A stretch of DNA of 64,000 nucleotides from assembly GCA_045222295.1 (NCBI GenBank), contig JBGUXP010000011.1:21643-85642 (forward strand), read 5' to 3'. Both the position numbers and the translations under genes were made by a program. Under the pieces are notes generated by a model that was not told the origin of the DNA, made no database searches, and worked only from the letters and a program-made list of their open reading frames with translations. Below, one piece after another: positions 3,589 to 63,366 of this stretch; within the stretch, counting starts at the first letter, position 1, and every line of letters starts with the position of its first letter. This DNA is from Bacteroidales bacterium (GTDB lineage: Bacteria > Bacteroidota > Bacteroidia > Bacteroidales > P3).

Positions 3589-3640
3589 AGCCTAAAACTT
3601 AAAGTTTAAAGTTTTTTTCTTGTATATAAAAAAAAGTGCG

Positions 3641-3648
3641 TATCTTTG
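3641..3648 (+). promoter_or_regulatory. -7 box TATCTTTG for tRNA-Leu
   Basis: TAnnTTTG match 20 nt upstream of the tRNA 5' end. Confidence 0.5.
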
Positions 3649-3667
3649 CACGCGTTTTTAACCCAAT

Positions 3668-3749
3668 GCGGATATGGCGTAATCGGTAGCCGCGTCAGAC
3701 TTAGGATCTGGTTCCGAAAGGAGTGGGGGTTCGAGTCCCCCTATCCGCA
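3668..3749 (+). tRNA. tRNA-Leu (anticodon UAG), long variable arm
   Basis: Acceptor GCGGATA/TATCCGC, anticodon loop CTTAGGA, T-loop GGTTCGAGTCC. Confidence 0.9.
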
Positions 3750-3815
3750 CAACTGTTTTTGTGGGTAGTTATGGCATTTAAAAGAAATAACCTGACGAAT
3801 TGGGTGCAGAGGACT

Positions 3816-5117
3816 ATGGAAAGGCATCAAATGCCATCCTCTTTTCACTATTCACTATCCACCCTTTTTCTTTTATTCTTTCTTTTTTTATCCGCGCACG
3901 CGCAGGCGAATTATATATTATTGCCAATGGACGAAGCCCAGAAGAACCACCTGAAAGCCTACGGCGTAGCCTATTGGAGCCTGCAGCGCGAGGTGGAAGT
4001 CACCTGGTTGCTCAACTATCGCGGAGGCACTTTCATGATGAAATATGCCGATGCTATCGAACGCGAATGTAAACTGAGGGGTGTAAGATGCGAGGTGATT
4101 GCCGACGGCCAAAGTAGCGCCATCCTCAGCCACATTGCCGACCCAGGCGTGAACATGGATGCCGTCAAGCTACAGAAAGCACCCAAGATTGCCGTCTACT
4201 CGCCGAAGAACAAATTGCCATGGGACGACGCCGTGACGCTTGTACTCACCTACGCAGAAATACCCTACGATGTGGTGTATGACGAGGAGGTGATGAGCGG
4301 CGTACTACCCACCTATGACTGGCTGCACCTGCACCACGAAGATTTCACCGGCCAATACGGCAAATTTTGGGCCAACTACCGCAGCCAGCAATGGTACATC
4401 GAGGATGTGCGGTTGCAAGAAGCCATGGCAAACAAGCTAGGCTTCAGCAAGGTCAGCCAACTGAAGCTGGCAGTAGCCAAGAAGATACGCGACTTTGTGA
4501 TGGGCGGCGGATTCCTCTTCGCCATGTGCTCGGCTCCTGACAGCTACGACGTGGCGCTAGCTGCCGAAGGGGTGGACATCTGCGACGTGATGTTCGACGG
4601 AGACCCCATGCAGCCCAACGCACAGGAGCTTCTGGATTACAGCAAATGTTTTGCCTTCAAAGACTTCCTCATCAGCCGGAACCCATCGGAATATGAGATT
4701 TCGACCATCGACATCGACGACCGCAGCCGCCAACGCCTAGTGAACGAGAAGAACGATTTCTTCGTACTCTTCGACTTCTCGGCCAAATGGGACTGGATTC
4801 CTACCATGCTGACACAAAACCACACTCGTGTGGTCCACGGCTTCATGGGACAGACAACGGCCTTCCGACGCGAATTGGTAAAGACCAGTTGCGTTATCCT
4901 GGGCGAGAACAAGGAGCTGAACGAGGTGCGCTACCTGCACGGAGACTACGGAAAAGGTACCTGGACCTTCCTCGGTGGGCACGACCCCGAAGACTACCGC
5001 CATTTCATCGGCGACCCTCCCACAGACCTCTCGCTCTACCCCAACTCTCCTGGATACCGACTGATTTTAAACAACATACTATTTCCTGCAGCAAAAAAAG
5101 AAAAACACAAAACATGA
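3816..5117 (+). CDS. Conserved secreted hypothetical protein (from memory, this family is often auto-annotated as asparagine synthetase B-like; function unknown)
   Basis: The ORF from 3723 overlaps tRNA-Leu, so the start is moved to MERHQMPSS.. ahead of a signal peptide (LFFLFLSAHAQA). First gene of a tightly packed 4-gene unit. Confidence 0.6.
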   Translation: MERHQMPSSFHYSLSTLFLLFFLFLSAHAQANYILLPMDEAQKNHLKAYGVAYWSLQREVEVTWLLNYRGGTFMMKYADAIERECKLRGVRCEVIADGQSSAILSHIADPGVNMDAVKLQKAPKIAVYSPKNKLPWDDAVTLVLTYAEIPYDVVYDEEVMSGVLPTYDWLHLHHEDFTGQYGKFWANYRSQQWYIEDVRLQEAMANKLGFSKVSQLKLAVAKKIRDFVMGGGFLFAMCSAPDSYDVALAAEGVDICDVMFDGDPMQPNAQELLDYSKCFAFKDFLISRNPSEYEISTIDIDDRSRQRLVNEKNDFFVLFDFSAKWDWIPTMLTQNHTRVVHGFMGQTTAFRRELVKTSCVILGENKELNEVRYLHGDYGKGTWTFLGGHDPEDYRHFIGDPPTDLSLYPNSPGYRLILNNILFPAAKKEKHKT

Positions 5118-6391
5118 CAAAGAGAATCATAATAGGACTAATAGTCGTAATGGGGTTCATTGGCAACATGGGCCATGCACAAAACGGCACATGGACTGTC
5201 TACAGCACCCGAACGAGTGATATCTGTGGCAACAACATATCAGCCCTTGCCGCTGACAGTCGTGGTGTATGGGCCGGAACCTACCAAGGACTATGCCGAC
5301 TCTCAGGACCTTCATGGCTGGACTACTCGATGTTCAACGAAAAGTTGAAAGACCAGTCGGTAAACTGTCTGATGATTGACAAGCGCGGAGTGCTGTGGAT
5401 TGGCACCGACGACTATGGTGTCATCGAATGGGACGGAACCAATTGGACCGAGCACAACGATGTCACACGACGACTGAAGATGAAATTTGTCAAAGAGATT
5501 GTCATAGACCAAGATGGCCTGACATGGATTGGTGTTACCCTCGGCGGCCTGGTGACCTACGACGGCAACGACTGGGAAAAATATACGCCCAACGACTGCG
5601 GCCTGCTGAGCGATTTCGTGCTTGATCTGGCCGTAGACCGTGCCAACCGTAAATGGATTACCACTAACGCCGGTGTCAGCGTCTTCAACGGCAACCGCTG
5701 GACAAGCTATACCACCGGAAACTCAGGCCTTCCCGACGACATCGTACCCGCCATCGCCATCGACAAGCAGAATGTCAAATGGTTCGGCACCCTCAGTGGT
5801 CTAGCCCGCTACGACGGCCAGCGATGGACTGTATGGAATACCAGCAACAGTCCGCTTCCCAGCGACCAAGTGAACGACATCACCATTGACAAGAACGGTC
5901 TGCTGTGGATAGCCACCAACCATGGTGCCGCCGTGTTTGACGGGATAGACAACTGGGTGGCTTTCACCCCTAAAAACAGCCAAATTCCCGAAGGAAACAT
6001 CTACAAGGTAGCCGTCGACAATAACGGAACCGTGTGGTTCGGTAACGACTCAAAAGGACTAGCCAAGCTCAGCGGTTTCCAGATGCCAAGCCGCGAGGTA
6101 GCCGAAAGTGTCCCTCCGGATAACCGTATAGTCAAGGAGGTTGATGCCCCTGGCCCCGGCGACCAGCATGTGCGCATCAACCCTCACCTTGACGAGGGAT
6201 ATATCACCGTCTCCATTGAGAGTCCATTAGCCAACATCACTTTCATCAATAGCAACGGCAAAGTGGTAAAACGGGTGGAAAACTACACCAACAACCAACA
6301 TATCAAAATCAACCGCCTTCCCAAAGGCATGTATACAGTCTCGGTGAAAACCGAACGTGGCGAAAGAAAAATTAAATTCAATCTGAAATAA
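5114..6391 (+). CDS. Secreted beta-propeller protein (two-component-regulator propeller repeats) with a T9SS C-terminal sorting domain
   Basis: ATGA overlap with the upstream gene; signal peptide; repeated W.GT..GL...DG..W units; C-terminal about 80-aa CTD (GMYTVSVKTERGERKIKFNLK). Confidence 0.7.
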   Translation: MTKRIIIGLIVVMGFIGNMGHAQNGTWTVYSTRTSDICGNNISALAADSRGVWAGTYQGLCRLSGPSWLDYSMFNEKLKDQSVNCLMIDKRGVLWIGTDDYGVIEWDGTNWTEHNDVTRRLKMKFVKEIVIDQDGLTWIGVTLGGLVTYDGNDWEKYTPNDCGLLSDFVLDLAVDRANRKWITTNAGVSVFNGNRWTSYTTGNSGLPDDIVPAIAIDKQNVKWFGTLSGLARYDGQRWTVWNTSNSPLPSDQVNDITIDKNGLLWIATNHGAAVFDGIDNWVAFTPKNSQIPEGNIYKVAVDNNGTVWFGNDSKGLAKLSGFQMPSREVAESVPPDNRIVKEVDAPGPGDQHVRINPHLDEGYITVSIESPLANITFINSNGKVVKRVENYTNNQHIKINRLPKGMYTVSVKTERGERKIKFNLK

Positions 6392-6393
6392 CA

Positions 6394-8445
6394 ATGAAAC
6401 GACTTGTTTTCCTGCTCCTGTGCCTCGCAACCACCTTGGGCATCAATGCCCAGCAGTTGGACCCTGCCAAACGCACCTTCTCGGTGAAAGAGACCTCGCC
6501 TACCGAAGCCGAACTCATCATGACTGTCAAACTCGACAACGGTTGGCACATGTATTCACAACACACCGATGCCAACGGCCCGCTGCCAACCGTATTTGAA
6601 TTCTCACCGTCAAGCGACTACCAGCTCGTGGGCAAGGTTTCCGAACCCAAGCCCCATGAGGAGATGGACGCCATGTTCGGCTGCATTGTCAAGTCGTTTA
6701 GTGGCACGGTGGTCTTCCGCCAGAAAATCAAACGTCTCTCGCAGAAAGACTTCACCGTCAAAGGCATTCTCTCCTACCAGCTCTGCAACGACGGCAGCTG
6801 CATTGCTCCTGAGGACCACGACATGGTCTTCAAGGTGAAAGGAGCCACCGAAGAAGCCGCACCCACCGTCACCGAAGAGACGGTCTCTTCCGAGGAAGCG
6901 GAGAATCAGGAATCCCTAGAACCCACCGAGTCTTTGGAGAAACCAGCAACTCCTGAAACCGCAGAAACCTCTGAGTCCTCCGAAGAGAGCCACCAGAGCC
7001 TGCTGATGATCTTTCTCATCGCCTTGGGTGGCGGCATCCTCACCATGTTCACCCCCTGCGTCTTCCCCATGATACCCATGACCGTCAACTTCTTCATGCG
7101 CGGTGCTGAGAACAAACGCAAAGGCCGTCGCCAGGCTTGGTTCTTTGGCTTCTCCATCGTCTTCCTCTTCGCCGTGTTGGGTGCCATCCTAGCTCTTATT
7201 CTCGGTCCCGAATCGCTCTATGTCATGGGTACCCACTGGATTCCCAATCTCATCTTCTTCGTCATCTTCTTCATCTTCGCCCTGAGTTTCTTCGGGCTCT
7301 TCGAAATAAAGATGCCCGAGAAGTGGGTCAACAGCAGTGACGAGCAGGCCGACAAGGGAGGTCTGCTGGCCCCCTTCTTCATTGCCCTGACCACCGTGCT
7401 GGTAAGCTTCAGCTGCACGGGTCCCATCCTCGGAGCTGCCCTGGTGGGCCTCACCACCTCGAGCACCGACCGCTGGGTATCATTGGTCACCATGCTGGGA
7501 TTCGGCATCGGATTCGCTGCTCCCTTCACCCTCCTGGCCATGTTCCCGCAGTTCCTCAAGAACATGAAGAGCGGCGGCTGGCTCAACACTGTCAAGGTGG
7601 TCTTCGCCTTCCTCGAGCTGGCCTTCGGACTGAAGTTCCTGCAACAGGCCGACCTCTACTGTGGCTGGGGGCTTCTCGACCGCGAAGTCTATCTGGCCCT
7701 CTGGATTGTCATCTTCGCGCTGTTGGGCTTTTACCTCCTTGGCAAACTGCGCTTCAAAGGTGACGACCCCATCGAGCACCTCGGCACCGGCCGACTGATG
7801 CTCGCCATCCTCGACCTGGCCTTTGTAGTCTACATGATTCCTGGCCTTTGGGGTGCCCCCCTCAAGGGCATCTCCGGCTTCATGCCCCCCATGGAGACCC
7901 AGGACTTCAACATCGAAAAGATTGTCTACGAGAACGCAGGTTCCGGTCCTGTCGCCTCTGTCGGCAAGTTGCCTTCCGACCGTAAATATACCGACCAGCT
8001 ACATGCCCCTCTCGGCTATGAGACTTTCTTTGACCTCGACGAGGCCAAAGCATACGCCCGCCAGATAGGCAAGCCCATCTTTGTCGACTTCACAGGAAAG
8101 ACCTGTGCCAACTGCCGCGAGATGGAGCACTACGTGTGGCCCGATACCGAAGTGAAACGCATCCTCAACGAAGACTACGTGATGGTCTCACTCTACTGCG
8201 ACGCCAACACAATCGAACTGCCCGAGAGTGAATGGGTCACCAACGACAAAGGCCGTGTCATCAAGTCGCTCGGACAGAAAAACCTCAACTACCAGAAGAC
8301 TGTCTTCAACATGAACGCTCAACCCTATTACGTGGTCATCGATGCCGACGGCAATGTCCTCACCAAGGAAAATTACAAATACGACCGCGACGTGCAGAAA
8401 TTCGTCAACTGGCTCAATGAAGGAAAACAGAACTTTAAGAAATAA
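6394..8445 (+). CDS. dsbD: Thiol:disulfide interchange protein, DsbD family (N-terminal DsbD-alpha-like domain, CcdA-type membrane core, C-terminal thioredoxin)
   Basis: Signal peptide; TPCVFPMIP and FSCTGPILG membrane motifs; C-terminal FTGKTCANC (CxxC) thioredoxin fold. Confidence 0.85.
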   Translation: MKRLVFLLLCLATTLGINAQQLDPAKRTFSVKETSPTEAELIMTVKLDNGWHMYSQHTDANGPLPTVFEFSPSSDYQLVGKVSEPKPHEEMDAMFGCIVKSFSGTVVFRQKIKRLSQKDFTVKGILSYQLCNDGSCIAPEDHDMVFKVKGATEEAAPTVTEETVSSEEAENQESLEPTESLEKPATPETAETSESSEESHQSLLMIFLIALGGGILTMFTPCVFPMIPMTVNFFMRGAENKRKGRRQAWFFGFSIVFLFAVLGAILALILGPESLYVMGTHWIPNLIFFVIFFIFALSFFGLFEIKMPEKWVNSSDEQADKGGLLAPFFIALTTVLVSFSCTGPILGAALVGLTTSSTDRWVSLVTMLGFGIGFAAPFTLLAMFPQFLKNMKSGGWLNTVKVVFAFLELAFGLKFLQQADLYCGWGLLDREVYLALWIVIFALLGFYLLGKLRFKGDDPIEHLGTGRLMLAILDLAFVVYMIPGLWGAPLKGISGFMPPMETQDFNIEKIVYENAGSGPVASVGKLPSDRKYTDQLHAPLGYETFFDLDEAKAYARQIGKPIFVDFTGKTCANCREMEHYVWPDTEVKRILNEDYVMVSLYCDANTIELPESEWVTNDKGRVIKSLGQKNLNYQKTVFNMNAQPYYVVIDADGNVLTKENYKYDRDVQKFVNWLNEGKQNFKK

Positions 8446-13179: not shown

Positions 13180-16100
13180 TTATTTGAAGTATTCCACGCC
13201 GCTCTCAAAGATGCGCTGGTCGTCGTTTCCAAAGATGTTCATGGCGCTGCCTTTACTTCTACGCTCCGAGTGCCCCATCTTGCCGAGGACACGACCGTCG
13301 GGACTGGTAATACCTTCGATGGCCATGTAGGATCCATTCATGTTGAACTCTTCATCCATGGTAGGCACACCGTCGAAGTTGCAGTACTGGGTGGCTACCT
13401 GACCGTTCTTGAAGAGACGATCGAGCCATTCCTGCGTGGCTACGAAACGGCCCTCGCCGTGCGAGATGGGGATGGTGTAAACACCACCCAACTCGGCACC
13501 GCGCAGCCAGGGGCTGAGGTTGGAGGTGATGCGGGTATAGGCCATCTTGCTTTGGTGACGACCGATGGTATTGAAGGTCAGCGTGGGGGCATCGGCGGCC
13601 TGCGAACGAATCTCACCGTAGGGGACGAGACCCAGTTTCACCAAGGCCTGGAAGCCGTTGCAGATACCCAGCATGAGGCCGTCGCGCTTATTGAGGAGTT
13701 CCATGACCGCATCGGCAATCTTGGCGTTGCGGAAGACGCTGGTGATGAACTTCGCGGAGCCTTCGGGCTCGTCGCCGGCGCTGAAGCCACCGGGTATCAT
13801 GACGATCTGGCTGTTGTTGATGGCCTTGACGTAGGCCTCGACGCTTTCGCGTATCTGCTGGCCGTTCTGGTTGCGGAAGACGATAATCTCGCTCTCGGCA
13901 CCGGCGCGGTTGAAGGCGCGGGCACTGTCGTACTCACAGTTGGTGCCAGGGAAGGCTGGGATGAAGACATGAGGCTTGGCTACCTTGTGGGAGCAGAGGT
14001 GGATATCTTTATAATTAACGGGGTTAATGGGTTGAATGGGTTGAATGGGCGAAGTGCTGCGAGTGGGAAAGACACTTTCGAGGGGTTTCTGCCAAGCAGC
14101 GAGAGCCTCGTTGAGGGCAATCTTCTCTCCACAGCACTCGAAGGCATCCTTGCCGGTCACTTCGCCTATCTCCTTGCAGCGGAACGGTAAGCCAGTGGCA
14201 TTCTCCACCTCGACAACAATCCAGCCGTAGTGTTTGGCGGAAAGATCTTGGCTGGTGGTGAGTTTGACACCGAGATTGTTGCCGAAGGCCATCTTGCTGA
14301 CAGCCTCGATAATGCCACCGAATCCGAGGGCATAAGCACTCTTCACCTGACCGGCCTCAATGGCTTTGCGCAGGGCAGCGTACTGGTTGAGGGCATCCTC
14401 GTAGTCGGGCATGCCGAATTCTTTCTCCTTGATGTCGAGGAGGACGAGTTTATTGCCGGCCTTCTTGAGCTCAGGGGTGACGACATGCTGGAGGTCGCTG
14501 ATGCCCACGGCGAAGGAGCAGAGGGTCGGTGGCACGTCGATATCGTTGAAGGTGCCGGACATGGAGTCTTTTCCGCCGATTGCGGGCAGCTTAAGGCCCA
14601 TCTGTGCATTGTAGGCACCGAGGAGGGCAGCGAAAGGTTCACCCCAACGATAGGGGTCGTTTCCGAGTTTCTTGAAATATTCCTGGAAAGTAAGGCGCAC
14701 ACGGCTGGCATCGCCACCGGCGGCGGCAATCTTAGCCACCGAACTCAGCACGGCGTATACGGCACCGTGGAAGGGGCTCCACGAGGTCTGGTAGGGGTCC
14801 ATGCCGTAGGACATAATGGTAACGGTGTCGCACTTGCCATCAAGCAGCGGCAACTTGCCAATCATGCTCTGGGTAGGCGTGAGCTGGTACTTGCCACCGA
14901 AGGGCATCACCACGCTGCCAGCACCGATACTGCTGTCAAACATCTCGACCAAGCCTTGCTGTGAGCAGACGTTGAGGTCGGAGAGAGTGGAGAGCCACTG
15001 CTCTTTGATGGGTTTGGTGGGTTGAGTGGGTTTAATGGACTGTGTGGGCATCGTCACCTTGACGGTGGTCTCCTGATGGGCGCCGTTGGTGTCGATGAAG
15101 CGGCGGCTGAGGTTGACAATCTCCTTGCCACGCCAGCTTATGACCATGCGGGGTTCCTTGGTGACGGTAGCCACCACAGTAGCTTCGAGGTTCTCTTCGT
15201 CGGCATACTTCAGCATGAGGTCGACATCCTTGGGGTCGACAACGACGGCCATACGCTCTTGGCTCTCGCTGATGGCCAACTCGGTACCATCGAGACCAGC
15301 ATACTTTTTGGGCACACGGTCGAGGTTAATCTGTAGACCGTCAGCCAACTCGCCAATGGCGACGCTAACACCACCGGCACCGAAGTCATTGCATTTCTTG
15401 ATGATATGGGAGACCTCCTCGCGGCGGAAGAGGCGTTGAATCTTGCGCTCGGTGGGGGCATTGCCCTTCTGCACCTCGGCACCGCAAGTGGTCAGGCTCT
15501 TGGTGGTGTGGCTCTTGGAGGCACCCGTGGCGCCTCCTATTCCGTCACGGCCCGTGCGGCCACCCAGCAGGATGATGATGTCACCAGGGTCGGAGGTAAG
15601 ACGCTGCACAGCACGACGAGGTGCGGCGGCGATGACAGCACCAATCTCCATACGCTTGGCCACATAGTTGGGGTGGTATATCTCGTTCACCAAGCCAGTG
15701 GCCAGACCAATCTGGTTGCCGTAGGAGCTGTAGCCGTGGGCGGCGGTGGTGACAATCTTACGCTGGGGCAACTTGCCGGCGAGGGTCTCGTTAAGAGGCT
15801 TTGTGGGGTCGGCAGCACCGGTGACGCGCATGGCCTGGTAGACGTAGGTGCGGCCCGAGAGTGGGTCTCGGATGCAGCCACCGAGGCAGGTGGCGGCACC
15901 ACCGAAAGGCTCAATCTCCGTCGGGTGGTTGTGGGTCTCGTTCTTGAAGTTGATGAGCCACTCCTCCTTGTTGCCGTCGATGACGACGGGTACCACGATG
16001 GAGCAGGCGTTGATCTCGTCGCTGGGCTCTTGGTCATCGAGGATGCCGGCCTTCTTGAGACGTTTGGCGGCAAGGGTTCCGATGTCCATCAGGCAGACGA

Positions 16101-21664: not shown

Positions 21665-21676
21665 ATTCTTTTTTTT

Positions 21677-21740
21677 CTCAATCAGAACTAAAAGAACAAA
21701 AAGAGATTTTTCTGATAGTTCTGATGGTTCTGATTGGGGA
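21677..21740. repeat. Intergenic repeat, family B, copy 1 (TCAATCAGAACTAAAAGAAC core plus 3 x TTCTGATNG)
   Basis: Shares a 20-nt core with 43268-43289. CAATCAGAAC/GTTCTGATTG are inverted ends. A 9-nt tandem repeat lies at 21710-21736. Confidence 0.7.
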
Positions 21741-22859
21741 TTAAATTATTATTGCCTCGGGTTCTAACTGAACGCCGAATTTATCTTTCACATCTTGTTG
21801 TATTGCTTGCGCGAGAGCCACCACCTCGCCGCCTGAGCAGCCACCGGCATTGTATAGCACCAGCGCATTTTGGGGCCACACCCCTGCCCTACCTTGCGTG
21901 CGTCCCTTCCATCCCGCACGGTCGATAAGCCAGCCTGCAGAAAGCTTATATCCGTTACACACTCCTCCACCCTTCGGGTTCCCCTCCCCTAACTTAGGGG
22001 AGGAACTGTTGCCGCAACCACAACTATCCAACTGTTCCCCTAAGTTAGGGGAGCAGTCAACACAACGTGTTGACTGAGGATTGTGTACCCCGTGGGCCTC
22101 GGGCATATCGGGATATTCTTGCTTGATACGGAGGTATGTCGATTCTTCCACCACGGGATTTTTAAAGAAACTGCCTGCAGAGCCATGCTCCTCGGGTTTC
22201 GGGAGCTTTCCCCAACGGAGGTCGATGATGGCATCGCGAAACTGCTGCGCCGTGGCGTGGGGCAGTCCTTCAAGTGCCTTGTAGCTTAGATTACGAACGA
22301 ACGTGCGGCTGAGACGGAATGACACCCTTAGAATCAAGTAGCGACCCGGCTGTTCCTTGAACATCGACTGGCGGTAAGCAAAACGGCAGTCGGCATTGCT
22401 GAACGAGCAGCGACGATGCTCCACGAGGTCGTAGGCTTCCACACGCTCGATAAAATCCTTGGCTTCGGCACCGTATGCACCCACGTTCTGCACTGCCGAC
22501 GCGCCCACGGTGCCGGGAATGGCCGAGAGGTTCTCCAGGCCATAGAAACCTTGGTCGAGCGTCCACTGCACCAAGTCGTCCATCACCATGCCGCCCCAGG
22601 CGGAAATTGTTGATAGTTGGTAGTTGATAGTTGGTAGTTGATAGTTACGACCAAGCGTTATGACGGTGCCGTCATAATCCTTGGTGAACACCATGTTACT
22701 GCCGCCACCAAGAATCAACATCCTCACTTCATCCTCCCTCTCCGAGGGGGGCAGGGTGTTTACATCCTCCTCATTCTCAATCACCACCAGTCGGCGTGCC
22801 TTGACGTCGATACCGAAGGTGCAGAAGTCCTTCAACGAAATATCTTCGTAAATCTTCAT
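21741..22859 (-). CDS. murB: UDP-N-acetylenolpyruvoylglucosamine reductase MurB, carrying repeat-derived in-frame insertions
   Basis: FAD-binding N-terminus (LILGGGSN), GSFFKNP, C-terminal SAGWLID and NALVLYN motifs. The 372 aa looks longer than I would expect for a MurB because of the inserts. Confidence 0.93.
   Translation of the reverse strand: MKIYEDISLKDFCTFGIDVKARRLVVIENEEDVNTLPPSEREDEVRMLILGGGSNMVFTKDYDGTVITLGRNYQLPTINYQLSTISAWGGMVMDDLVQWTLDQGFYGLENLSAIPGTVGASAVQNVGAYGAEAKDFIERVEAYDLVEHRRCSFSNADCRFAYRQSMFKEQPGRYLILRVSFRLSRTFVRNLSYKALEGLPHATAQQFRDAIIDLRWGKLPKPEEHGSAGSFFKNPVVEESTYLRIKQEYPDMPEAHGVHNPQSTRCVDCSPNLGEQLDSCGCGNSSSPKLGEGNPKGGGVCNGYKLSAGWLIDRAGWKGRTQGRAGVWPQNALVLYNAGGCSGGEVVALAQAIQQDVKDKFGVQLEPEAIII
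21981..22076. repeat. Palindromic element, family C, copy in murB (two CCCCTAASTTAGGGG palindromes plus a GTCAACAC hairpin)
   Basis: CTCCCCTAACTTAGGGGAG at 21984-22002; TCCCCTAAGTTAGGGGA at 22036-22052; GTCAACACAACGTGTTGAC at 22056-22074. The same termini occur at 42879-42955. Confidence 0.85.
22607..22648. repeat. Heptanucleotide tandem repeat (TAGTTGR x6) in-frame in murB
   Basis: TTGTTGA TAGTTGG TAGTTGA TAGTTGG TAGTTGA TAGTTAC, 42 nt in total. Encodes NYQLPTINYQLSTI. Confidence 0.85.
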
Positions 22860-29548: not shown

Positions 29549-29662
29549 CGAACATTTTTGAAACTGACAAAAAAAAATTCAAAAAACCTCTTTTTTTTCT
29601 TCTTTCAACCCTCCTCTAAGATTCAATTTCACCCGCATTCCACAACATTGGTTTTCATATAG

Positions 29663-29730
29663 TTAATATGTTGTTCTTATGTTGTTCTTTAGATTAAATC
29701 ATAAGAACAACATAAGAACAACATTATATC
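29663..29730. repeat. Intergenic palindromic repeat, family D, copy 1
   Basis: (ATGTTGTTCTT)x2, a 13-nt loop, then (AAGAACAACAT)x2: 22-nt perfect arms. Near-identical copy at 51170-51237. Confidence 0.85.
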
Positions 29731-29829
29731 AGTATTGGAAATGAGCAACTTAAGGACACCTTATTCATTGCATACAGGAAGATTTCCAGGTTGAATGAAA
29801 ATGTTTGCGCACAAATGTAAAAAATAATG

Positions 29830-38921: not shown

Positions 38922-39020
38922 CCACAACTGGCTGATAACCACTTACCAAGCCCTTACCAACTCCTAACCAACTCCTACCACGGTAGGAGATGATAGGGTG
39001 TTGGTAAGCCGATGGTTGGT
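38922..39020. repeat. Intergenic structured repeat, family A, copy 2
   Basis: Aligns over about 90 nt with 2906-2996, in the same orientation, again just upstream of a plus-strand gene. Confidence 0.7.
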
Positions 39021-42422: not shown

Positions 42423-43226
42423 TTAAAACAAGGCTAACTGGCGTACGCCAGATTGGCAGTGCGATTGATACGGACACTCATACGGAGTCAGGCAATGCTG
42501 ACCCGTGGGGGTGTCCGGTTCGTTTATGGCGAGGGCTATCGCCTTCATGGTGGCGATGTTCTTCTCTATCTCGTCGTGCTGGGCTTGCAATGCTTCGGTG
42601 AGGTCTTCTGTGATGAAGCCGCCGACGGGGTTGGCGTAGACGACGCAGAAGGAGTGTATCTCGCGGCAATGTGATATGATATAGTGCTGCAACGCAGCGT
42701 CGCGGCGGTATGTCTTGCTGAGGGCAGTGCCGCTCTTCACCTCGTAGATGTCCAATGTCCCGTCTTCGCGTTGGCGGACCACATCGGCCAGCACCAACAC
42801 TTCGTCATGGAGAAATCCTGCTTCAAAGAGGGTGACTGGTGTGGCACACTCCTCCACCACCGCTTCGCGGCGGTCCCCCTCCCCTAACTTAGGGGAGGAG
42901 CCAAGACAGTTATCTGCAAGGACTTTCTTCAGCTCTCCCCCTAAGTTAGGGGGAGTACCCCGCAGGGGGGAGGGAGTGTGTAACCTGTCAAGAAGCTGCG
43001 CCGTGCGCTCGGGGTACGCATCCACATTTCTCTTCAGCTCAGCGGAGATATCGATGCCGTCAGGGAAGGTAGCTTTGAATGCGTATTCGAACTCGCGGCC
43101 ACGGTCGAACCGCAGCATCTGCTCACGCGTGTATTTTGCCAACCGCGGGTTGTGGACATCGAGCCACAACGCTCTGTCGCACTGGAGGCCACGGATATAC
43201 TTGCTCTTGCTCAACAGATGGCTCAT
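42423..43226 (-). CDS. DUF2779 / Cas4-RecB-like PD-(D/E)xK nuclease family protein (short form) carrying a palindromic in-frame insert
   Basis: N-terminal LSKSKYIRGLQCDRALWL signature; C-terminal Cys cluster C..YECPYQSHC. Confidence 0.65.
   Translation of the reverse strand: MSHLLSKSKYIRGLQCDRALWLDVHNPRLAKYTREQMLRFDRGREFEYAFKATFPDGIDISAELKRNVDAYPERTAQLLDRLHTPSPLRGTPPNLGGELKKVLADNCLGSSPKLGEGDRREAVVEECATPVTLFEAGFLHDEVLVLADVVRQREDGTLDIYEVKSGTALSKTYRRDAALQHYIISHCREIHSFCVVYANPVGGFITEDLTEALQAQHDEIEKNIATMKAIALAINEPDTPTGQHCLTPYECPYQSHCQSGVRQLALF
42878..42970. repeat. Palindromic element, family C, copy in the DUF2779 gene
   Basis: CTCCCCTAACTTAGGGGAG at 42879-42897; CTCCCCCTAAGTTAGGGGGAG at 42934-42955; CCCCGCAGGGG hairpin at 42958-42968. 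Confidence 0.85.
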
Positions 43227-43240
43227 TCTCTCAGTTTTTA

Positions 43241-43340
43241 TCTCAACAGAACTATCATTTTTTTATTTCAATCAGAACTAAAAGAACTATCAGAACCAAT
43301 CGTCTAATTCTTTTTGTTCTTTTCGTTCTAATTGAGATTA
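43241..43340. repeat. Intergenic repeat, family B, copy 2 (inverted-repeat form)
   Basis: TCAATCAGAACTAAAAGAAC ... GTTCTTTTCGTTCTAATTGAGA are inverted arms. The 20-nt core is identical to 21679-21698. Confidence 0.7.
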
Positions 43341-45494: not shown

Positions 45495-45762
45495 CCGCGC
45501 ATCGTTGCAAAACCGTGTTGCAGAGCTGCAAAATGGCCGCGCACAGGTGCGGAGGGCATTACACGGCTGAAAAACGACCGCGCATATATGCGGAGCGGAT
45601 TACACGGCTGCAAATTGACCTCGCATATATGCGGGGCGCGTTGCACGGCTGTTTCATGGTTGCGCACCGGTGCGCGGTGGCGTTGCAGTGCTGTCAATGC
45701 TCCCCGCACAGGTGCGGGGAGCATTACATGAGCCGTTTCGTGGCCTCGCAGCGGTGCGGAGG
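45495..45762. repeat. Tandem array of 7 degenerate 41-42-nt units, each with a GC-rich hairpin
   Basis: Hairpin cores (CCGCGCA-N4-TGCGG-like) start at 45495, 45537, 45578, 45619, 45660, 45702 and 45744. The inter-hairpin segment is semi-conserved (GCATTACACGGCTG...). Confidence 0.8.
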
Positions 45763-46974
45763 CTACTTCTTCCAGCGCTTAAGCTGGGGGAAGTATTGCA
45801 GGAGCTGCTGGCGGTACTCGTCGGCGGTGAGGTGCTGGTTGGTGTTTTTGTTGAACTCGTCGACGAACTGGACGCAGCAGTCGACCATCTGCTCCATGGT
45901 GCACTCCTGGGTGAAGTGGCCGTCGGCGAAGCAGTACTTGCAGTAGTCGGGATTGTCGCTCACCACCTCGTCGGTCAGCGGCATGCCGCAGCTCTGACAG
46001 TAGCGCTGTTTGGGGGCGCCGGGCTTGCGCTGCAGGACGGCGTAGACCTTAGCCATGATGTCGGCGGCGCGGAGGTGGTAGTTGGTGAGCATCTCGTCGG
46101 GGGTGCCGCTCTCGCCGAAGCGGTCGTCGACGGCGACGTACTCCATGGGCGTGGGGCAGCGGAGGGCAAGCGTCTGGGCGATGCTGTCGCCGAGGCCGCC
46201 GTTGAAGAGGTGCTCCTCGCAGGTGACGACGGCGCCGGTCTTGCGGGCGCTGGCCACGACGGCCTCCACGTCGAGCGGCTTGATGGTGTGGATGTTGATG
46301 ACTTCGCAGCTGATGCCTACCTTCTCGAGCATCTCGGCGGCCTGCAGGGCTTCCCACACGAGGTGGCCGCAGGCGAAGAGGGTCACGTCGCGACCCTCGC
46401 TCAGCAGCTGGGCTTTGCCGATTTCGAACTTCTCGCCTTCCGGCAGGAAGCAGGGCATCTTGGAGCGGCCGAGGCGGAGGTAGACGGGACCGACGTGCTC
46501 GGCGGCGGCCAGCGTGGCGGCCTTGGCCTGGTTGTAGTCGGCAGGCACCAGCACGGTCATGTTGGGCAGCACCTTCATGAGGGCGATGTCCTCCATGGTC
46601 TGGTGCGTGGCGCCGTCCTCACCGAGGGAGATGCCGGCGTGCGAGCCGCAGATTTTCACGTTCTTGTTGCTGTAGCACACCACCTGGCGTATCTGGTCGT
46701 AGACGCGGCCGGTGACGAACTCGGCGAAGCCCCCGATGAAGGGCACCTTGCCGCAGAGCGAGAGGCCGGCGGCGATGCCGACCATATTGGCCTCGGCGAT
46801 GCCGCACTGGATGAAGCGCTCGGGGAACTCCTTGGCGAAGCCGTCCATCTTGACGCTGCCTTTCACGTCGGCGCTCAGGGCGACGACATTCTCATTCTTG
46901 CGGCCAGCCTCTACCAGGCCCTCGCCCATGCCGGCGCGCAACTCTTTGCTTGATTTGATTTCGTAGTGGGTCAT
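45763..46974 (-). CDS. Transketolase C-terminal-section protein (Pyr-binding plus C-terminal domains) fused to a C-terminal zinc-ribbon domain
   Basis: FIQCGIAEANMVG and GEDGATHQ motifs. The extra about 85 aa carries CQSCGMPL...CKYC. Confidence 0.85.
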   Translation of the reverse strand: MTHYEIKSSKELRAGMGEGLVEAGRKNENVVALSADVKGSVKMDGFAKEFPERFIQCGIAEANMVGIAAGLSLCGKVPFIGGFAEFVTGRVYDQIRQVVCYSNKNVKICGSHAGISLGEDGATHQTMEDIALMKVLPNMTVLVPADYNQAKAATLAAAEHVGPVYLRLGRSKMPCFLPEGEKFEIGKAQLLSEGRDVTLFACGHLVWEALQAAEMLEKVGISCEVINIHTIKPLDVEAVVASARKTGAVVTCEEHLFNGGLGDSIAQTLALRCPTPMEYVAVDDRFGESGTPDEMLTNYHLRAADIMAKVYAVLQRKPGAPKQRYCQSCGMPLTDEVVSDNPDYCKYCFADGHFTQECTMEQMVDCCVQFVDEFNKNTNQHLTADEYRQQLLQYFPQLKRWKK

Positions 46975-47012
46975 TGTTATTTGTTTTTGATTATTATTGT
47001 CTATTTTTTATT

Positions 47013-47121
47013 GGGGTTAATGGGCTTAATGGGTTTAATGGGCGCTGACGCATGATGGCTATTGCCCAAATCGCCCATTAGACCCATTAAACCCATTTTG
47101 CCCATTCTGCCCATTAAACCC
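47013..47121. repeat. Inverted pair of 9-nt repeat tracts (AATGGGNTT family)
   Basis: Left arm GGGGTTAATGGGCTTAATGGGTTTAATGGGCG at 47013-47044 is intergenic. The right arm at 47072-47121 is its imperfect reverse complement and encodes the C-terminal GFNGQNGQNGFNGSNGR tail of the next gene. Confidence 0.8.
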
Positions 47122-51139: not shown

Positions 51140-51169
51140 GTTCTATCTGGTAAGCTGATTTCCATTTTA

Positions 51170-51237
51170 TTAATATGTTGTTCTTATGTTGTTCTTTAGA
51201 TTTATTCATAAGAACAACATAAGAACAACATACTATC
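51170..51237. repeat. Intergenic palindromic repeat, family D, copy 2
   Basis: Arms identical to 29663-29730; only the loop and flanks differ. Confidence 0.85.
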
Positions 51238-51314
51238 AATATGAAAAATAGGCTTTTAGGTGGCACTTTTATTGATTTTGTATTGCAACGGGGTGATATT
51301 CTGGATTTTTTGTG

Positions 51315-52490: not shown

Positions 52491-54170
52491 ATGCGAATCC
52501 TGCTCATTACACCGCCACTCACGCAGTTGAACACCCCCTATCCTGCTACAGCCTACCTCAAGGGGTACTACGCCACACAGGGGCATACAGTACGACAGGT
52601 CGACCTCGGAATCGAGGTGGTCGACCGCGTGCTGTCGCGGGAGTTCCTTGCGGGCATCGGCCTCGTGGAACAGGCGCGGCTGATAGAACCCGTCAAGCGG
52701 TTCCTCCGTGGGCAGGACGACACACTGGGCCCTCGAATTGCCAATAGGAGTTTGCTGCCGGAAGGCAATCGTTTCGAGCAATTGGATGAGGACAATATGG
52801 AATGGTCCTTCGGCGTCAGCGGCACCACCGACAAGGCGCAGCACCTGGCCACATTATTTATAGAGGACTTCGCCGACCACATCCGCGAGCACGTCGATCC
52901 CCACTTCGACCTCGTGCGCTACGCCGAGTACCTCAGCAACGACGCCCCCACCTTCGACCCCCTCTACGCCGAGCTGCAGCAGGAGCCGTCGGCCATCGAC
53001 CGACTGATGCTCGGCCTCCTCGAAGAGTGTGTGTCGGGGTTTGCCCCCGACCGCGTTTGTCTCACGGTCCCTTTCCCCGGCTGCCTGTATGGGGCTTTGC
53101 GTTGCGGCCAATGGCTCAAGGCCCACACCACCGCCACCGTTGAGATAGGCGGTGGATTTCCCAACACCGAATGGCGCCAGCTGAGTGACCAGCGTATCTA
53201 TGAGTTCTGCGACGAGGTGGTGATTGACGGGTGCAAAGAGGCTGACCAATACTGCCCCGATTTCAGCGATTTACCATTGGACAAATACCTCTCGCTCACA
53301 GAGATGACCAACCCCATGCACCGCCTGTGGAACCAGGGTCGGTGGAACAAGATGGTGATGGCCCACGGCTGCTACTGGCACCGCTGCGCCTTCTGCGACA
53401 CCTCGCTCGACTATATCGGCAACTACCGCGCCCCCAAGGCCGCCACCGTGGTCGACCACATGGAGCGCGTCATGGCACAGACGGGCCGCACGGGCTTCCA
53501 CTTCGTCGACGAGGCGTTGCCGCCCAAGCTGCTGCGCGAGGTGGCCGAAGAGATACTGCGGCGCGGCCTCGCCGTCAGTTTCTGGGGCAACATACGCTTC
53601 GAGAAAGCCTACACCGCCGAGCTTTGCGACCTGCTGGCCGAGGCCGGCATGGTGGCTGTGAGCGGTGGCTTGGAGGTGGCCTCCGACCGCCTGCTGAAAC
53701 TCATCGACAAGGGCGTCACCATCCAGCAGACCGTCGATGCCTGCCGCCACCTGCGCGACGCCGGCATCATGGTGCACACCTACCTCATGTACGGCTTCCC
53801 CACCGAGACGCTCCAGGAGACCGTCGACGCCCTCGAGATCGTCCGCCGCATGTTCGACGAAGGCATCGTCCAAAGCGCCTTCTGGCACCGCTATGCCATG
53901 ACTTGCCACTCGCCTTCTGGCCTCAACCCCGAAGCCTACGGCGCCCGCCGCACCACCCTCGAGCCGAACCCCTTCTGCAACAACGAGGTCGACTGGGAGC
54001 CGGTGGATGGGGCCAATGGGGCTAATGGGTTTACTGGGCATTTCCCTTATGATATCGATGCCGTCGGTGCCGCCCTGCGGCTGGCCACCTATAACTACAT
54101 GAACGGGCTGGGTTTAGACCAGCCCGTCCGCAGTTGGTTCCCCATACGGGTACCGAAACCATCAAAATAA
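52491..54170 (+). CDS. B12-binding-domain radical SAM protein
   Basis: N-terminal Rossmann-like MRILLITPP; radical SAM CxxxCxxC as CYWHRCAFC; starts 3 nt after the upstream stop. Confidence 0.85.
   Translation: MRILLITPPLTQLNTPYPATAYLKGYYATQGHTVRQVDLGIEVVDRVLSREFLAGIGLVEQARLIEPVKRFLRGQDDTLGPRIANRSLLPEGNRFEQLDEDNMEWSFGVSGTTDKAQHLATLFIEDFADHIREHVDPHFDLVRYAEYLSNDAPTFDPLYAELQQEPSAIDRLMLGLLEECVSGFAPDRVCLTVPFPGCLYGALRCGQWLKAHTTATVEIGGGFPNTEWRQLSDQRIYEFCDEVVIDGCKEADQYCPDFSDLPLDKYLSLTEMTNPMHRLWNQGRWNKMVMAHGCYWHRCAFCDTSLDYIGNYRAPKAATVVDHMERVMAQTGRTGFHFVDEALPPKLLREVAEEILRRGLAVSFWGNIRFEKAYTAELCDLLAEAGMVAVSGGLEVASDRLLKLIDKGVTIQQTVDACRHLRDAGIMVHTYLMYGFPTETLQETVDALEIVRRMFDEGIVQSAFWHRYAMTCHSPSGLNPEAYGARRTTLEPNPFCNNEVDWEPVDGANGANGFTGHFPYDIDAVGAALRLATYNYMNGLGLDQPVRSWFPIRVPKPSK
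54003..54038. repeat. 9-nt tandem repeat (NNNAATGGG x4) in-frame in the radical SAM gene
   Basis: GTGGATGGG GCCAATGGG GCTAATGGG TTTACTGGG. Encodes VDGANGANGFTG. Confidence 0.75.
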
Positions 54171-54205: not shown

Positions 54206-54682
54206 CTATCGAGCGATATCCTCGTCGTCTTTGGGTTCTCCATGGCGGAGATTCTTGATGTAGAGTTCAATACTCTTCAACCCCCAGTTGATGAGGATGA
54301 TGACAGCGACAGCCACGATGGCCTCGCGCCACATGCCATAGCCGCAGAGGCAACCCACGGCGGCTGAGCACCAGATGGTGGCAGCCGAGGAAAGGCCGTG
54401 GATGGTAAGTCCGTTCTTCATGATGACACCAGCACCAAGGAATCCAATACCAGTAACAACCTGAGATAGAACACGGAGATTGTCATTATTCACAGGGCCA
54501 CCAGCAGCAGTGGCACCCATAATAACACTTTCGCTTATAAGAATAAATATACAGGCACCCACGGCCACAAGTGAATTGGTAGTGAGCCCAGCCTGACGCT
54601 GCTTAAGTTCGCGCTGAGTTCCGATGATGATGCCGGCGATGAGGGCGCAAGCAAGGCGGAAAATAAAGACTTCGATGGGCAT
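54206..54682 (-). CDS. MgtC/SapB family membrane protein
   Basis: 158 aa; RLACALIAGIIIGTQRE..AGLTTN signature. Confidence 0.85.
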   Translation of the reverse strand: MPIEVFIFRLACALIAGIIIGTQRELKQRQAGLTTNSLVAVGACIFILISESVIMGATAAGGPVNNDNLRVLSQVVTGIGFLGAGVIMKNGLTIHGLSSAATIWCSAAVGCLCGYGMWREAIVAVAVIILINWGLKSIELYIKNLRHGEPKDDEDIAR

Positions 54683-54718
54683 GATGGGGTGAATGGGTTT
54701 AATTGGTTAACTGGCTTT
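54683..54718. repeat. 9-nt tandem repeat tract (AATGGGTTT family) between the MgtC-family gene and rsmI
   Basis: GATGGGGTG AATGGGTTT AATTGGTTA ACTGGCTTT; spans the rsmI stop codon. Confidence 0.65.
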
Positions 54719-55381
54719 CCCGGCGAGGATGACGACAATCTCACCCTTGACCTCTTTCTGCTGGAAGTGGGCGAGTACCTCGGCGAGGGTGCCGCGAGCA
54801 GTCTCTGCGTGGAGCTTGCTGATTTCGCGGCTGACGGAGACCGGGCGCTCGTTGCCGAGAACGGCGATGAGTTCTTCCAGCAGTTTGACGAGGCGATAGG
54901 GGCTCTCGTATATAACCATTGTGCGTTCCTCGTCAGCGAGAGCCTTGATGGCCGTCTGGCGACCTTTTTTGTGCGGCAGGAAGCCGAGAAACGTGAATCG
55001 GTCGCAGGGGAGTCCGCTGTCGATGAGTGCCGGCACAAAGGCCGTAGCTCCCGGCAGGCATTCCACCTCGATACCTTCTTTCACAGCTTCGCGCACCAGC
55101 AAGAATCCCGGGTCGCTGATGCCAGGAGTTCCGGCATCGGTGACCACGGCAATGGTGGTGCCGCCCTTCAGTCGCTCGACGAGCCCCGCCACCGTCTGGT
55201 GCTCGTTGAAGATATGGTAACTCTGCAACGGGGTGTCAATACCGTAGTGTTGCAGTAGCACACGGCTGGTGCGGGTGTCCTCGGCAAGGATAAGGTCGAC
55301 AGACTTGAGAACCTCGACGCCACGAAATGTCATGTCGCCGAGGTTCCCAACGGGTGTCGGTACTAGGTACAATTTAGACAT
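54707..55381 (-). CDS. rsmI: 16S rRNA (cytidine1402-2'-O)-methyltransferase RsmI
   Basis: Start MSKLYLVPTPVGNLGDMT; LAEDTR motif. The start overlaps the yebC-family stop (TAATG). Confidence 0.92.
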   Translation of the reverse strand: MSKLYLVPTPVGNLGDMTFRGVEVLKSVDLILAEDTRTSRVLLQHYGIDTPLQSYHIFNEHQTVAGLVERLKGGTTIAVVTDAGTPGISDPGFLLVREAVKEGIEVECLPGATAFVPALIDSGLPCDRFTFLGFLPHKKGRQTAIKALADEERTMVIYESPYRLVKLLEELIAVLGNERPVSVSREISKLHAETARGTLAEVLAHFQQKEVKGEIVVILAGKAS

Positions 55382-62124: not shown

Positions 62125-63279
62125 ATGATCGCCAAGACGATGGTCAACCTCGAAGAAGTGCTGGCCGACGAGTTGCGCGAGATGGGTGCCGAGAATATCA
62201 AAGTTGGTGCCCGTGCCGTGGAGTTTGAGGGCGACATGCGCCTGCTCTACCGCGCCAACTACTGTTGCCGCACCGCCCTGGCCATCCTGAAGCCCTTCGC
62301 CGAGTTCGATGCAAACAACGACCAAGAGCTTTACGACCAGGTATACAAAATCCGTTGGGAGAAAATCCTCGACGTCGACGGGACCTTCATGATCGACTCC
62401 ACTACCTCCGGCGAGGTATTCACCCACAGCTATTATGCCGCTCTCAAGACCAAAGATGCCATTGTCGACCGCTTCCGCCGCAACTTCGGCAAGCGCCCCA
62501 ATATCGATACCGAACAACCCGACTATAAATTCAATTTGCATATCCGAGACAATCATGTCACCCTGCTGATGAATGCCTCTGGCGACTCGCTCCATAAGCG
62601 CGGTTACCGCCAAGGTGTGGGCATAGCCCCCATCAATGAGGTCCTCGCCGCCGGTCTCATCAAGCTCGCCGGATGGAAAAGCGACACCAATTTCTACGAC
62701 CCCATGTGCGGCTCCGGCACCCTGCTCATCGAAGCTGCCATGATGGCCAACAACATCCCCGCACAGTATTACCGCAACCGCTTTGGTTTCATGCGTTGGA
62801 AAGAGTTCAATCTGGGAGAGTGGAAGAGTGTGAAGAACGAGGAAGACAGAAAAATCGGAGCCGGCGACTTTGACTGTGAAATCTGGGGAAATGACATCGA
62901 CGAGCAGGTCATCCAACAGTGCGAGAAGAATCTCGAATACACCAAACTGCACAAGGACGTGATGCTACATATCGGCGACTTTGCCGAGCAGGACCCGCCC
63001 GAAGGCAAAACATTGATAGTCACCAACCCGCCCTATGGCGAGCGCATCAAAGTCGAAGACCTCAATGCCCTCTACACCCAGTTGGGAGATACCTTCAAGC
63101 AGAAATATGGTAAAGATTGCGACGTGTGGCTCATCACCAGCGACTTCGAGGCGATGAAGCACATCGGGCTCCATCCTTCCAAGAAAATCCCCGTGCAAAA
63201 CGGATCCCTCGACTGCCGCTTCCTCCACTTCGAACTCTACGACGGGTCGAAAAAAACTAAATATCAAACAGAGGAATAA
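62125..63279 (+). CDS. THUMP-domain class I SAM-dependent RNA methyltransferase (RlmL/YpsC-like)
   Basis: MIAKTMVNLEEVLADEL THUMP N-terminus; DPMCGSGT and TNPPYGER motifs. The start could be further upstream (62059). Confidence 0.85.
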   Translation: MIAKTMVNLEEVLADELREMGAENIKVGARAVEFEGDMRLLYRANYCCRTALAILKPFAEFDANNDQELYDQVYKIRWEKILDVDGTFMIDSTTSGEVFTHSYYAALKTKDAIVDRFRRNFGKRPNIDTEQPDYKFNLHIRDNHVTLLMNASGDSLHKRGYRQGVGIAPINEVLAAGLIKLAGWKSDTNFYDPMCGSGTLLIEAAMMANNIPAQYYRNRFGFMRWKEFNLGEWKSVKNEEDRKIGAGDFDCEIWGNDIDEQVIQQCEKNLEYTKLHKDVMLHIGDFAEQDPPEGKTLIVTNPPYGERIKVEDLNALYTQLGDTFKQKYGKDCDVWLITSDFEAMKHIGLHPSKKIPVQNGSLDCRFLHFELYDGSKKTKYQTEE

Positions 63280-63280
63280 A

Positions 63281-63366
63281 CCCCGTAGGGGTGACAGAAC
63301 TTAGCCGGGGGCAAAAGCCCCCGGTAGCTGTTTCCGAACTGTATTAGAGCCCCGTAGGGGCGACAG
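63281..63366. repeat. Structured intergenic element: two direct CCCCGTAGGGGYGACAG units flanking a CCGGGGGC-AAAA-GCCCCCGG hairpin
   Basis: Direct repeats at 63281-63297 and 63350-63366; 8-bp GC hairpin at 63305-63324. Confidence 0.7.

Follow-up and report, generated by a model that had tools for sequence, protein, structure and literature searches.

A palindromic repeat of two inverted units, apparently inserted in frame and read through in genes of ruminant-gut Bacteroidales

Two short palindromes inside a nuclease gene of a Bacteroidales bacterium are the inner parts of a single 138-nt element, in which two inverted units surround a variable spacer. Our reading, to which we give a probability of about 0.8, is that this element is a non-autonomous, modular palindromic repeat made of two inverted units of ~50 nt, inserted into genes and read through there. 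The window, meaning the whole 64,000-nt stretch of DNA that was analyzed, holds the nuclease copy (copy B) and a second copy in murB (copy A; Table 1). The family is multi-copy in many ruminant-gut Bacteroidales genomes, where it occurs as solo units, as doublets, and as mixed doublets.

A preliminary description of this DNA had placed palindromes at 42879-42897 and 42934-42955, followed by a hairpin, all within the 42423-43226 coding sequence. The first position is exact; the second palindrome is present, with its true start one base further on, at 42935; and the hairpin, CCCCGCAGGGG, does follow at 42958-42968. The coding sequence is indeed an ORF, on the minus strand and 267 aa long, that reads ..TPPNLGGELKKVLADNCLGSSPKLGEGDRR.. 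across the palindromes. Four copies of the motif CCCCTAASTTAGGGG are present in the window (21986, 22037, 42881, 42938), compared with 0.05 expected, and none of 100 shuffles reached four. Within one element, the palindromes are mutual reverse complements (centre AACTT versus AAGTT). Thus, one unit is present twice in the element, in inverted orientation. A single unit of ~50 nt comprises ACACACTCC, a small GC hairpin, and CTCCCCTAACTTAGGGGAG.

Read along the minus strand from 42981 to 42844, copy B runs ACACACTCC, hairpin 1, palindrome 1, spacer, palindrome 2, hairpin 2, GGAGTGTGC, a plan that matches 22 doublets of other genomes among the matches listed. Its extent was set by alignment with insert-free and half alleles, and 138 nt is the difference between 267 and 221 aa. 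The ACACACTCC block is invariant, or nearly so, in 37 aligned units, and the loop of hairpin 1 is TGC in copy B versus TTC in orthologues. Peptides predicted from the open frame of copy B include HTPSPLRGTPPNLGGE and SSPKLGEGDR. Folded as RNA, the 138 nt reach a predicted -82 kcal/mol (z = -6.9), and folded as single-stranded DNA, -41 kcal/mol (z = -6.1). The minimum-energy fold of both RNA and DNA is a long, branched hairpin in which the two palindromes are base-paired to each other, as are the two termini. A search of the whole window with Rfam at gathering thresholds gave no match at the element; at E<=10 on the element alone, the best match was RAGATH-24, with 16.9 bits versus the 45.3 required. 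No terminator-like T-run is present at the element.

Table 1. Positions in the window of the two element copies, the parts of copy B, and the host genes.
Feature	Positions	Strand	Remarks
Complete element, copy B	42844..42981	-	138 nt = 46 codons, in frame, sense to nuclease gene
Left terminal inverted repeat ACACACTCC	42973..42981	-	complementary to 42844-42852
Hairpin 1, CCCC-TGC-GGGG (CCCCGCAGGGG)	42958..42968	-	shape conserved, sequence variable; compensatory changes across copies
Palindrome 1, CTCCCCCTAACTTAGGGGGAG on minus strand (CTCCCCCTAAGTTAGGGGGAG as forward letters)	42935..42955	-	translated PPNLGGE
Variable spacer, 37 nt	42898..42934	-	translated LKKVLADNCLGS
Palindrome 2, CTCCCCTAAGTTAGGGGAG on minus strand (CTCCCCTAACTTAGGGGAG as forward letters)	42879..42897	-	translated SPKLGE
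Hairpin 2, ACCGCCGC-GAA-GCGGTGGT	42856..42874	-	read from sequence; in RNA and DNA folds
Right terminal inverted repeat GGAGTGTGC (consensus GGAGTGTGT)	42844..42852	-	
Host gene of copy B, stand-alone nuclease, Cas4-family PD-(D/E)xK by predicted fold, 267 aa	42423..43226	-	insert at residues ~82-128
Element copy A, 130 nt	21957..22086	+	antisense to murB, in frame; right terminus degenerate (GGATTGTGT)
murB (UDP-N-acetylmuramate dehydrogenase), host of copy A, 372 aa	21741..22859	-	Pfam FAD_binding_4 + MurB_C

Copies A and B follow one plan in opposite orientation, with different hairpin sequences and with spacers of 32 nt (A) and 37 nt (B). A repeat finder and pairwise alignment show that the two copies have more in common than the ~20-nt palindromes to which the preliminary description had confined their likeness. 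Specifically, their ends are also alike and resemble terminal inverted repeats (GTTACACACTCC ... GGAKTGTG), and in both copies a small hairpin separates each end from its palindrome. The idea of conserved ends around a variable interior was essentially right, except that the ends are ACACACTCC and GGAGTGTGT, lying 30-45 nt outside the palindromes. In MurB, residues 253-303 stand where P. aeruginosa MurB (7orz) has a 9-residue loop. Copy A is missing from MurB orthologues of 321-327 aa, and an orthologue at 89% identity has a different repeat in the same place. We note other repeats in murB: the window gene has a AACTATCAACTACC tandem repeat at ~22600-22650 (residues 72-86), translated NYQLPTINYQLSTIS, and the orthologues P0122, P0128, P0189, and P0226 have unrelated repeat-derived inserts in the DMP(D/E)AH-YKLSAGW loop.

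Scanning one genome per species with the pattern CACACTCC-N10-40-CCCCTAACTTAGGGG returned at least 112 stretches, from ~40 genomes among the matches listed. Nearly all of the matches listed come from Bacteroidales MAGs of the ruminant gut, and the taxa among them include Alistipes, Tidjanibacter, Muribaculaceae, Prevotellaceae, Bacteroides, Phocaeicola, and Ca. Limimorpha; a few odd taxon labels are probably the result of mis-binning or chance. The viral contigs scanned for the unit gave no match. Searching proteins with the insert peptide (50 aa) yielded a single candidate, and hence is unfit as a census. We found no description of the element in the literature, including in searches with the raw DNA and peptide strings.

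Among the matches listed, 150 elements have at most one mismatch per block, and they divide into 128 solo units and 22 doublets. An early suggestion that each palindrome is an independent insertion captures part of this picture, in that the single-palindrome unit is the commoner form and half-element alleles exist at the nuclease site, but the two palindromes of copy B belong to one element. The motif AGGAGYTG continues the unit past the palindrome. A sister unit (ACACACGCCCCC, hairpin, CCCCCTCTAACTTAGAGGGGG) makes mixed doublets with the main unit, and some elements possess both termini but one palindrome. Across 37 distinct 44-nt units, 94.8% of hairpin 1 cells are paired, and 57 double-change cells compare with 19 in shuffles; none of 500 shuffles was as high, and slid controls pair in 42-58% of cells. 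Roughly half of the hairpin loops are TNC triloops. Beside some copies, termini (GGAGGAGTGTGT or ACACACTCC) are repeated in tandem two or three times (L051 ~1190-1240, L059 ~6370-6440, L043 5510-5530), which suggests nested insertion or slippage at element ends.

The host of copy B appears, by its predicted fold, to be a Cas4-family nuclease. The top Foldseek matches of its model are Cas4 8d3l (E 9e-5), SSO0001, Pcal_0546, ACE1, AdnAB, and Exo5. Four cysteines are invariant, one N-terminal (C16) and three C-terminal (C245, C251, C257), an arrangement that agrees with the pattern of Cas4 and other PD-(D/E)xK nucleases with an Fe-S cluster. Because TIGR00372 (cas4) scores 20 bits (E 4e-4), under its 65-bit cut-off, the assignment is made at the family level only and is not to CRISPR Cas4. 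The DUF2779 label first given to the protein finds no support: Pfam gave no match for the window nuclease at E<=0.01, nor for insert-free orthologues even at E<=10, and NCBIfam did not bear the label out either. The protein had also been thought short at 267 aa. It instead exceeds its insert-free orthologues by 46 aa, the majority of the best 120 homologues being 220-221 aa.

In the AlphaFold2 model of the nuclease, core blocks have pLDDT of 84-96. Residues 83-127, which sit between helix 68-79 and strand 131-140, have pLDDT <50 and no secondary structure. We infer, solely from intact frames in many lineages, that the ribosome reads through copy B to produce a 46-residue, Pro/Gly/Ser-rich disordered loop and that the protein stays functional. 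One could suppose that the protein possesses this segment natively, as a lineage-specific feature, and that its DNA palindromes are incidental, given that the frame is kept in 31 full-insert orthologues. We consider this idea barely credible: the same DNA occurs both ways round in unrelated genes and is mostly intergenic, the insert is predicted to be disordered, and, as described next, insert-free alleles exist at 98% core identity. The segment is likewise not conserved at the protein level in distant homologues.

The preliminary description had proposed comparison with insert-free orthologues and inspection of the element borders for target-site duplications. We took the best 120 homologues of the nuclease, and the site was classifiable in 109. 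Insert-free alleles number 67, with a loop of 5-10 residues (KEEEID, KGDGVA, LRPCSAANTV); the full insert is present in 31, half of it (IHTPSPLRGTPPNLGGEL) in 10, and an insert of unrelated sequence in 1. Excising exactly 138 nt of copy B in silico gives a loop equal in length to that of insert-free alleles. The alleles indicate that modules at this site have been deleted, swapped, or nested. In particular, the right halves of some full inserts read ELAAPCGLTEEC or EGVPEGRGRV in place of EGDRREAVVEEC, the left halves of some read HTPQSGTRPDSSPNLG, and nested and decayed versions of the insert also occur, the palindromes being decayed in some orthologues (P0063, P0064, P0097, P0099). We also observed that the insert-free P0023 allele (L004, gene 3254-3931, loop LRPCSAANTV) has a short hairpin without mismatches, TTGCGGCCGTGCTCGGCCGCAA, precisely where the element sits in filled alleles; it may be a footprint or another kind of mini-palindrome.

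Filled and empty alleles are interleaved, and thus incongruent, in the protein-core tree. The closest filled/empty pair among the best 120 homologues has 98% core identity. At the DNA level, this pair (L124/L125) is 90-100% identical over most of the gene, and the difference consists of the element plus diverged flank, ~15 nt on the left and ~45 nt on the right. These same flanks travel with the element in other backgrounds. Because the element is accompanied by its flanks, the filled allele, together with ~15 nt and ~45 nt of diverged flanking DNA, has moved between related lineages by homologous recombination. This is also why no clean empty site or target-site duplication can be read from the filled/empty pair; no duplication is visible at the borders.

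We note a second variable site in the nuclease orthologues (alignment columns ~244-300, after ..FSIVY), where some carry NGADGVNGSNG, derived from a 9-nt repeat, and others carry AGETPAHP-type and SDLSDQSD-type repeat peptides. With repeat inserts at both variable sites, this small gene has two hotspots for in-frame repeat insertion.

Among the matches listed, long open frames hold 40 of 150 elements (27%), compared with 71% of random intervals. Thus, the family is depleted in genes, yet common there. Pfam domains are present in 9 of 10 host ORFs tested. The hosts include PriA, UvrD, an ABC-F ATPase, a radical SAM protein, an Eco57I-type methylase, BcrAD/BadFG, and SBP_bac_5; RadA (recognized from its translation, unscored) and a membrane protein were seen separately. 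Coding solo units among the matches listed are sense in 16 cases and antisense in 13.

Each palindrome contains TAA or TAG in two of the three frames per strand, leaving one stop-free frame per strand. As a consequence, the peptide of the element is always ..SPNLGE.. or ..SPKLGE.., and only open-frame insertions with spacing divisible by 3 survive within genes. All 11 coding doublets indeed have a palindrome spacing divisible by 3, while non-coding doublets are distributed 5/4/2 over the three residues. Statistically, then, the in-frame state is not inherent in the element but is a survival filter that selection on the host gene imposes. The notion of an element "designed" to be translatable was considered and rejected, as non-coding doublets do not keep multiple-of-3 spacing.

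Frame keeping also bears on the proposal that the element is removed in the manner of an intron or intein, so that the mature nuclease lacks the 46 residues. While the termini can pair, which would bring the flanks together, removal before translation would make it unnecessary for coding copies to be always open and, unlike non-coding copies, to keep spacing divisible by 3. Known self-splicing introns are far larger than 138 nt. The introns and ribozymes of Rfam gave no match, and inspection of the peptide revealed no intein motifs. We regard removal as very improbable.

The modules within the element are conserved to a degree that the surrounding gene is not. Among five orthologous filled nuclease alleles, nucleotide identity is 71-83% over all positions of the gene core and 50-70% at its third codon positions, compared with 98-100% in the left module (49 nt), 93-100% in the right module (56 nt), and 43-92% in the spacer. 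The sole left-module difference falls in a hairpin loop. Third positions are identical in all 36 module codons, where ~54% identity is expected, which counts further against a native protein segment. A radical SAM gene compared between two genomes likewise has a conserved right module, and its left part has been replaced by another type. Frozen modules alongside a spacer that drifts as fast as the gene are unlike what is expected of a dead selfish insert. Module identity could arise from structural constraint, gene conversion, or repeated replacement. Between two paralogues in one genome (L030/L056), the right module differs more than it does between orthologues of different genomes. This divergence speaks against simple homogenization among the copies of one genome and allows for a role that is structural or at the level of the host.

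Such a role would be played by host-exapted DNA or RNA modules, for example protein-binding palindromes or mRNA hairpins that function in stability, pausing, or recombination; purifying selection would keep the modules, and coding copies would be tolerated or useful. Orthologous modules that are 93-100% identical next to a drifting spacer and nearly saturated host synonymous sites fit this proposal, as do the confinement of left-module change to a hairpin loop and the very stable predicted fold (z -6 to -7). Nonetheless, most orthologues do without the insert, the palindromes have decayed in the four orthologues named above, copies lie in both orientations relative to transcription, and genes hold fewer copies than random positions would. 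An Rfam family and a T-run are also absent. Exaptation of this sort strikes us as improbable.

More tentatively, and still with considerable doubt, we suggest that the modules, rather than being passive debris, constitute an actively maintained, long-lived, REPIN-like replicator population of rumen Bacteroidales that resides partly inside essential genes and exchanges modules. The suggestion draws on modules being held at 93-100% identity at orthologous sites while synonymous sites saturate. If it is true, either an enzyme dedicated to maintenance or mobilization would exist, or the hairpins would serve the host at the level of DNA or mRNA.

With respect to mobilization, several properties recall a classical MITE, that is, a deletion derivative of an IS, moved cut-and-paste by a DDE transposase that binds ACACACTCC/GGAGTGTGT, with solo units as decay products. 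All exact doublets have 9-nt terminal inverted repeats (ACACACTCC ... GGAGTGTGT, 8-9 of 9 positions), and the elements are 120-180 nt long, multi-copy, and without coding capacity. Moreover, two different genes of one genome (L030, L056) carry the same combination of left and right modules, which implies that the doublet can move as a whole. Against these points, 17-18 doublets lack flanking target-site duplications, and no strong target motif is visible beyond a faint preference for T at -2 and G at -1. Among the matches listed, one-ended solo units are ~6 times as numerous as doublets, and beside the terminus it is hairpin shape, rather than sequence, that is conserved. A search of 926 kb of sequence for terminus pairs 0.4-4 kb apart revealed no autonomous element bearing these termini, and the intervals examined were ordinary genes. 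We deem a classical MITE unlikely, although it deserves serious consideration.

The predominance of one-ended units, the lack of a duplication, and the conservation of hairpin shape favor a single-strand mechanism like that of REP/RAYT. We therefore prefer, at somewhat less than even odds, a mobilizer that recognizes hairpins in single-stranded DNA (REP/RAYT- or IS200/IS605-like) over DDE cut-and-paste. Searches by tblastn, with an approximate IS200 TnpA query and then with the L017 Y1 protein, found no unit-flanked gene for a mobilizing enzyme. They yielded one real Y1 gene, that of L017, and one spurious match in an ABC transporter. Two units are found 290 nt away from the L017 Y1_Tnp gene (PF01797, E 2.8e-18), which is bracketed by a different hairpin repeat. 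No transposase was found in the dense L074 cluster, nor in L055, where two copies flank a 2169-codon ORF. As a separate observation, L017 is a Prevotellaceae MAG in which the IS200-like Y1_Tnp gene (149 aa, 1321-1767) and the hairpin repeat CCCCAGGTTTCGGCGCATTACTGCGCCAAACCTGGGG (1085-1240 and 2180-2240) together look like a REP/RAYT-type arrangement.

We envision that the single-stranded element can fold into one long, branched, REPIN-like hairpin, and that a candidate enzyme acting in trans may perhaps be responsible for its primary mobilization. Copy B lies in the region of the nuclease gene encoding a variable loop, and the insert would be translated as an extra loop that the fold tolerates. 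Within genes, open-frame insertions with spacing divisible by 3 are kept and others lost. Once established, the filled allele has spread among related lineages by homologous recombination.

In its behavior, the element is reminiscent of the Rickettsia palindromic elements. These are reportedly palindromic repeats of 100-150 nt that reside between genes or in frame inside many genes, essential ones included; they are said to lack coding capacity and to add a peptide segment that the fold tolerates. To our knowledge, they have no transposase. The element described here is likewise palindromic and in frame in diverse genes (MurB, Cas4-like nuclease, PriA, UvrD, RadA, ABC-F, radical SAM). The likeness is one of behavior only, as no sequence relationship is apparent by eye. 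Unlike the Rickettsia elements, moreover, it inhabits free-living gut Bacteroidales, not reduced intracellular genomes. It is also built from a pair of inverted units, each of which can occur singly, with a hairpin that covaries and modules that can be interchanged.

A further comparison is with REP, REPIN, and BIME sequences with RAYT (Y1) transposases (Nunvar 2010; Bertels & Rainey 2011; Ton-Hoang 2012; survey PMC3733652), of which REPs are extragenic by definition. Our element shares with REP/REPIN a short palindromic unit that exists as singlets (128) and as inverted doublets (22) forming a long hairpin, a mosaic combination of unit types, high copy number, and strong unit conservation. 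It differs from REP in having 27% of copies in open frames, in lacking a GTAG or CGTC tag (its units end in ACACACTCC and AGGAGYTG), in possessing a second, variable hairpin and a ACACACTCC terminus, and in the lack of a flanked RAYT gene in the sequence searched. Bacterial MITEs include the Correia elements of Neisseria, ERIC/IRU of enterobacteria, and Nezha of cyanobacteria (census PMC11602168). Like these, the element has terminal inverted repeats and a size of 100-200 nt and is non-autonomous, multi-copy, and occasionally intragenic; unlike these, it has no target-site duplication, no parent IS that we could find, mostly one-ended copies, and no copies on the viral contigs scanned. Because it departs from REP in location and tag and from classical MITEs in target-site duplication, we file it in neither: it belongs to the broad REPIN/MITE/RPE-like kind, not to any named family. 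By analogy, it resembles RPEs in behavior, REPINs and BIMEs in architecture, and MITEs in termini.

We also note other repeats in the window. A 9-nt tandem repeat family, (K)TNAATGGG, occurs at 14006-14060, 15005-15050, 47008-47118, 54004-54040, and 54663-54726, as well as in the L006 gene at 343-1065; two of its arrays lie within one 1245-codon minus-strand open frame, and this repeat is also the source of NGADGVNGSNG at the second variable site of the nuclease orthologues, where NG(V/A)DG is the repeated motif. At 45497-45765, six tandem units of 41-42 nt each have a CCGCGCACAGGTGCGGAGG-type hairpin (family D2), an arrangement presumably akin to that of MITEs with minisatellites, of which BrickBuilt of Porphyromonas gingivalis is an example. 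A 94-nt repeat at 29649-29742 and 51156-51249 (86% identical) has an internal palindrome on ATGTTGTTCTTATGTTGTTCTT, and both copies are apparently intergenic. An 81-nt repeat at 2909-2989 and 38925-39016 (88% identical) is CCAAC-rich and ends in the palindrome CTCCTACCATGGTAGGAG. Short repeats of the AGAACTAAAAGAAC type at 21676-21704 and 43268-43337 are intergenic and adjoin both element-bearing genes, with a 29-nt inverted match of 93%. Finally, an Acido-Lenti-1 RNA of Rfam, at 63279-63324 on the minus strand, scores 43.5 bits versus a gathering threshold of 37, in what is apparently a Bacteroidales genome.

Selfish DNA residing in protein-coding genes, a phenomenon for which Rickettsia is the best-known case, would with this element extend to gut Bacteroidales, which are abundant and free-living. 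Its copies in MurB, PriA, UvrD, RadA, and the Cas4-like nuclease are natural experiments on loops that tolerate 15-50 extra residues. For rumen MAGs, the practical consequences are inflated protein lengths, spurious small ORFs, and homology-based annotation that such inserts can misdirect. What most deserves further attention is the conservation of the modules: frozen modules set against a drifting spacer and gene provide a testable handle on whether REPIN-like repeats are kept up by an enzyme, by gene conversion, or by a benefit to the host.
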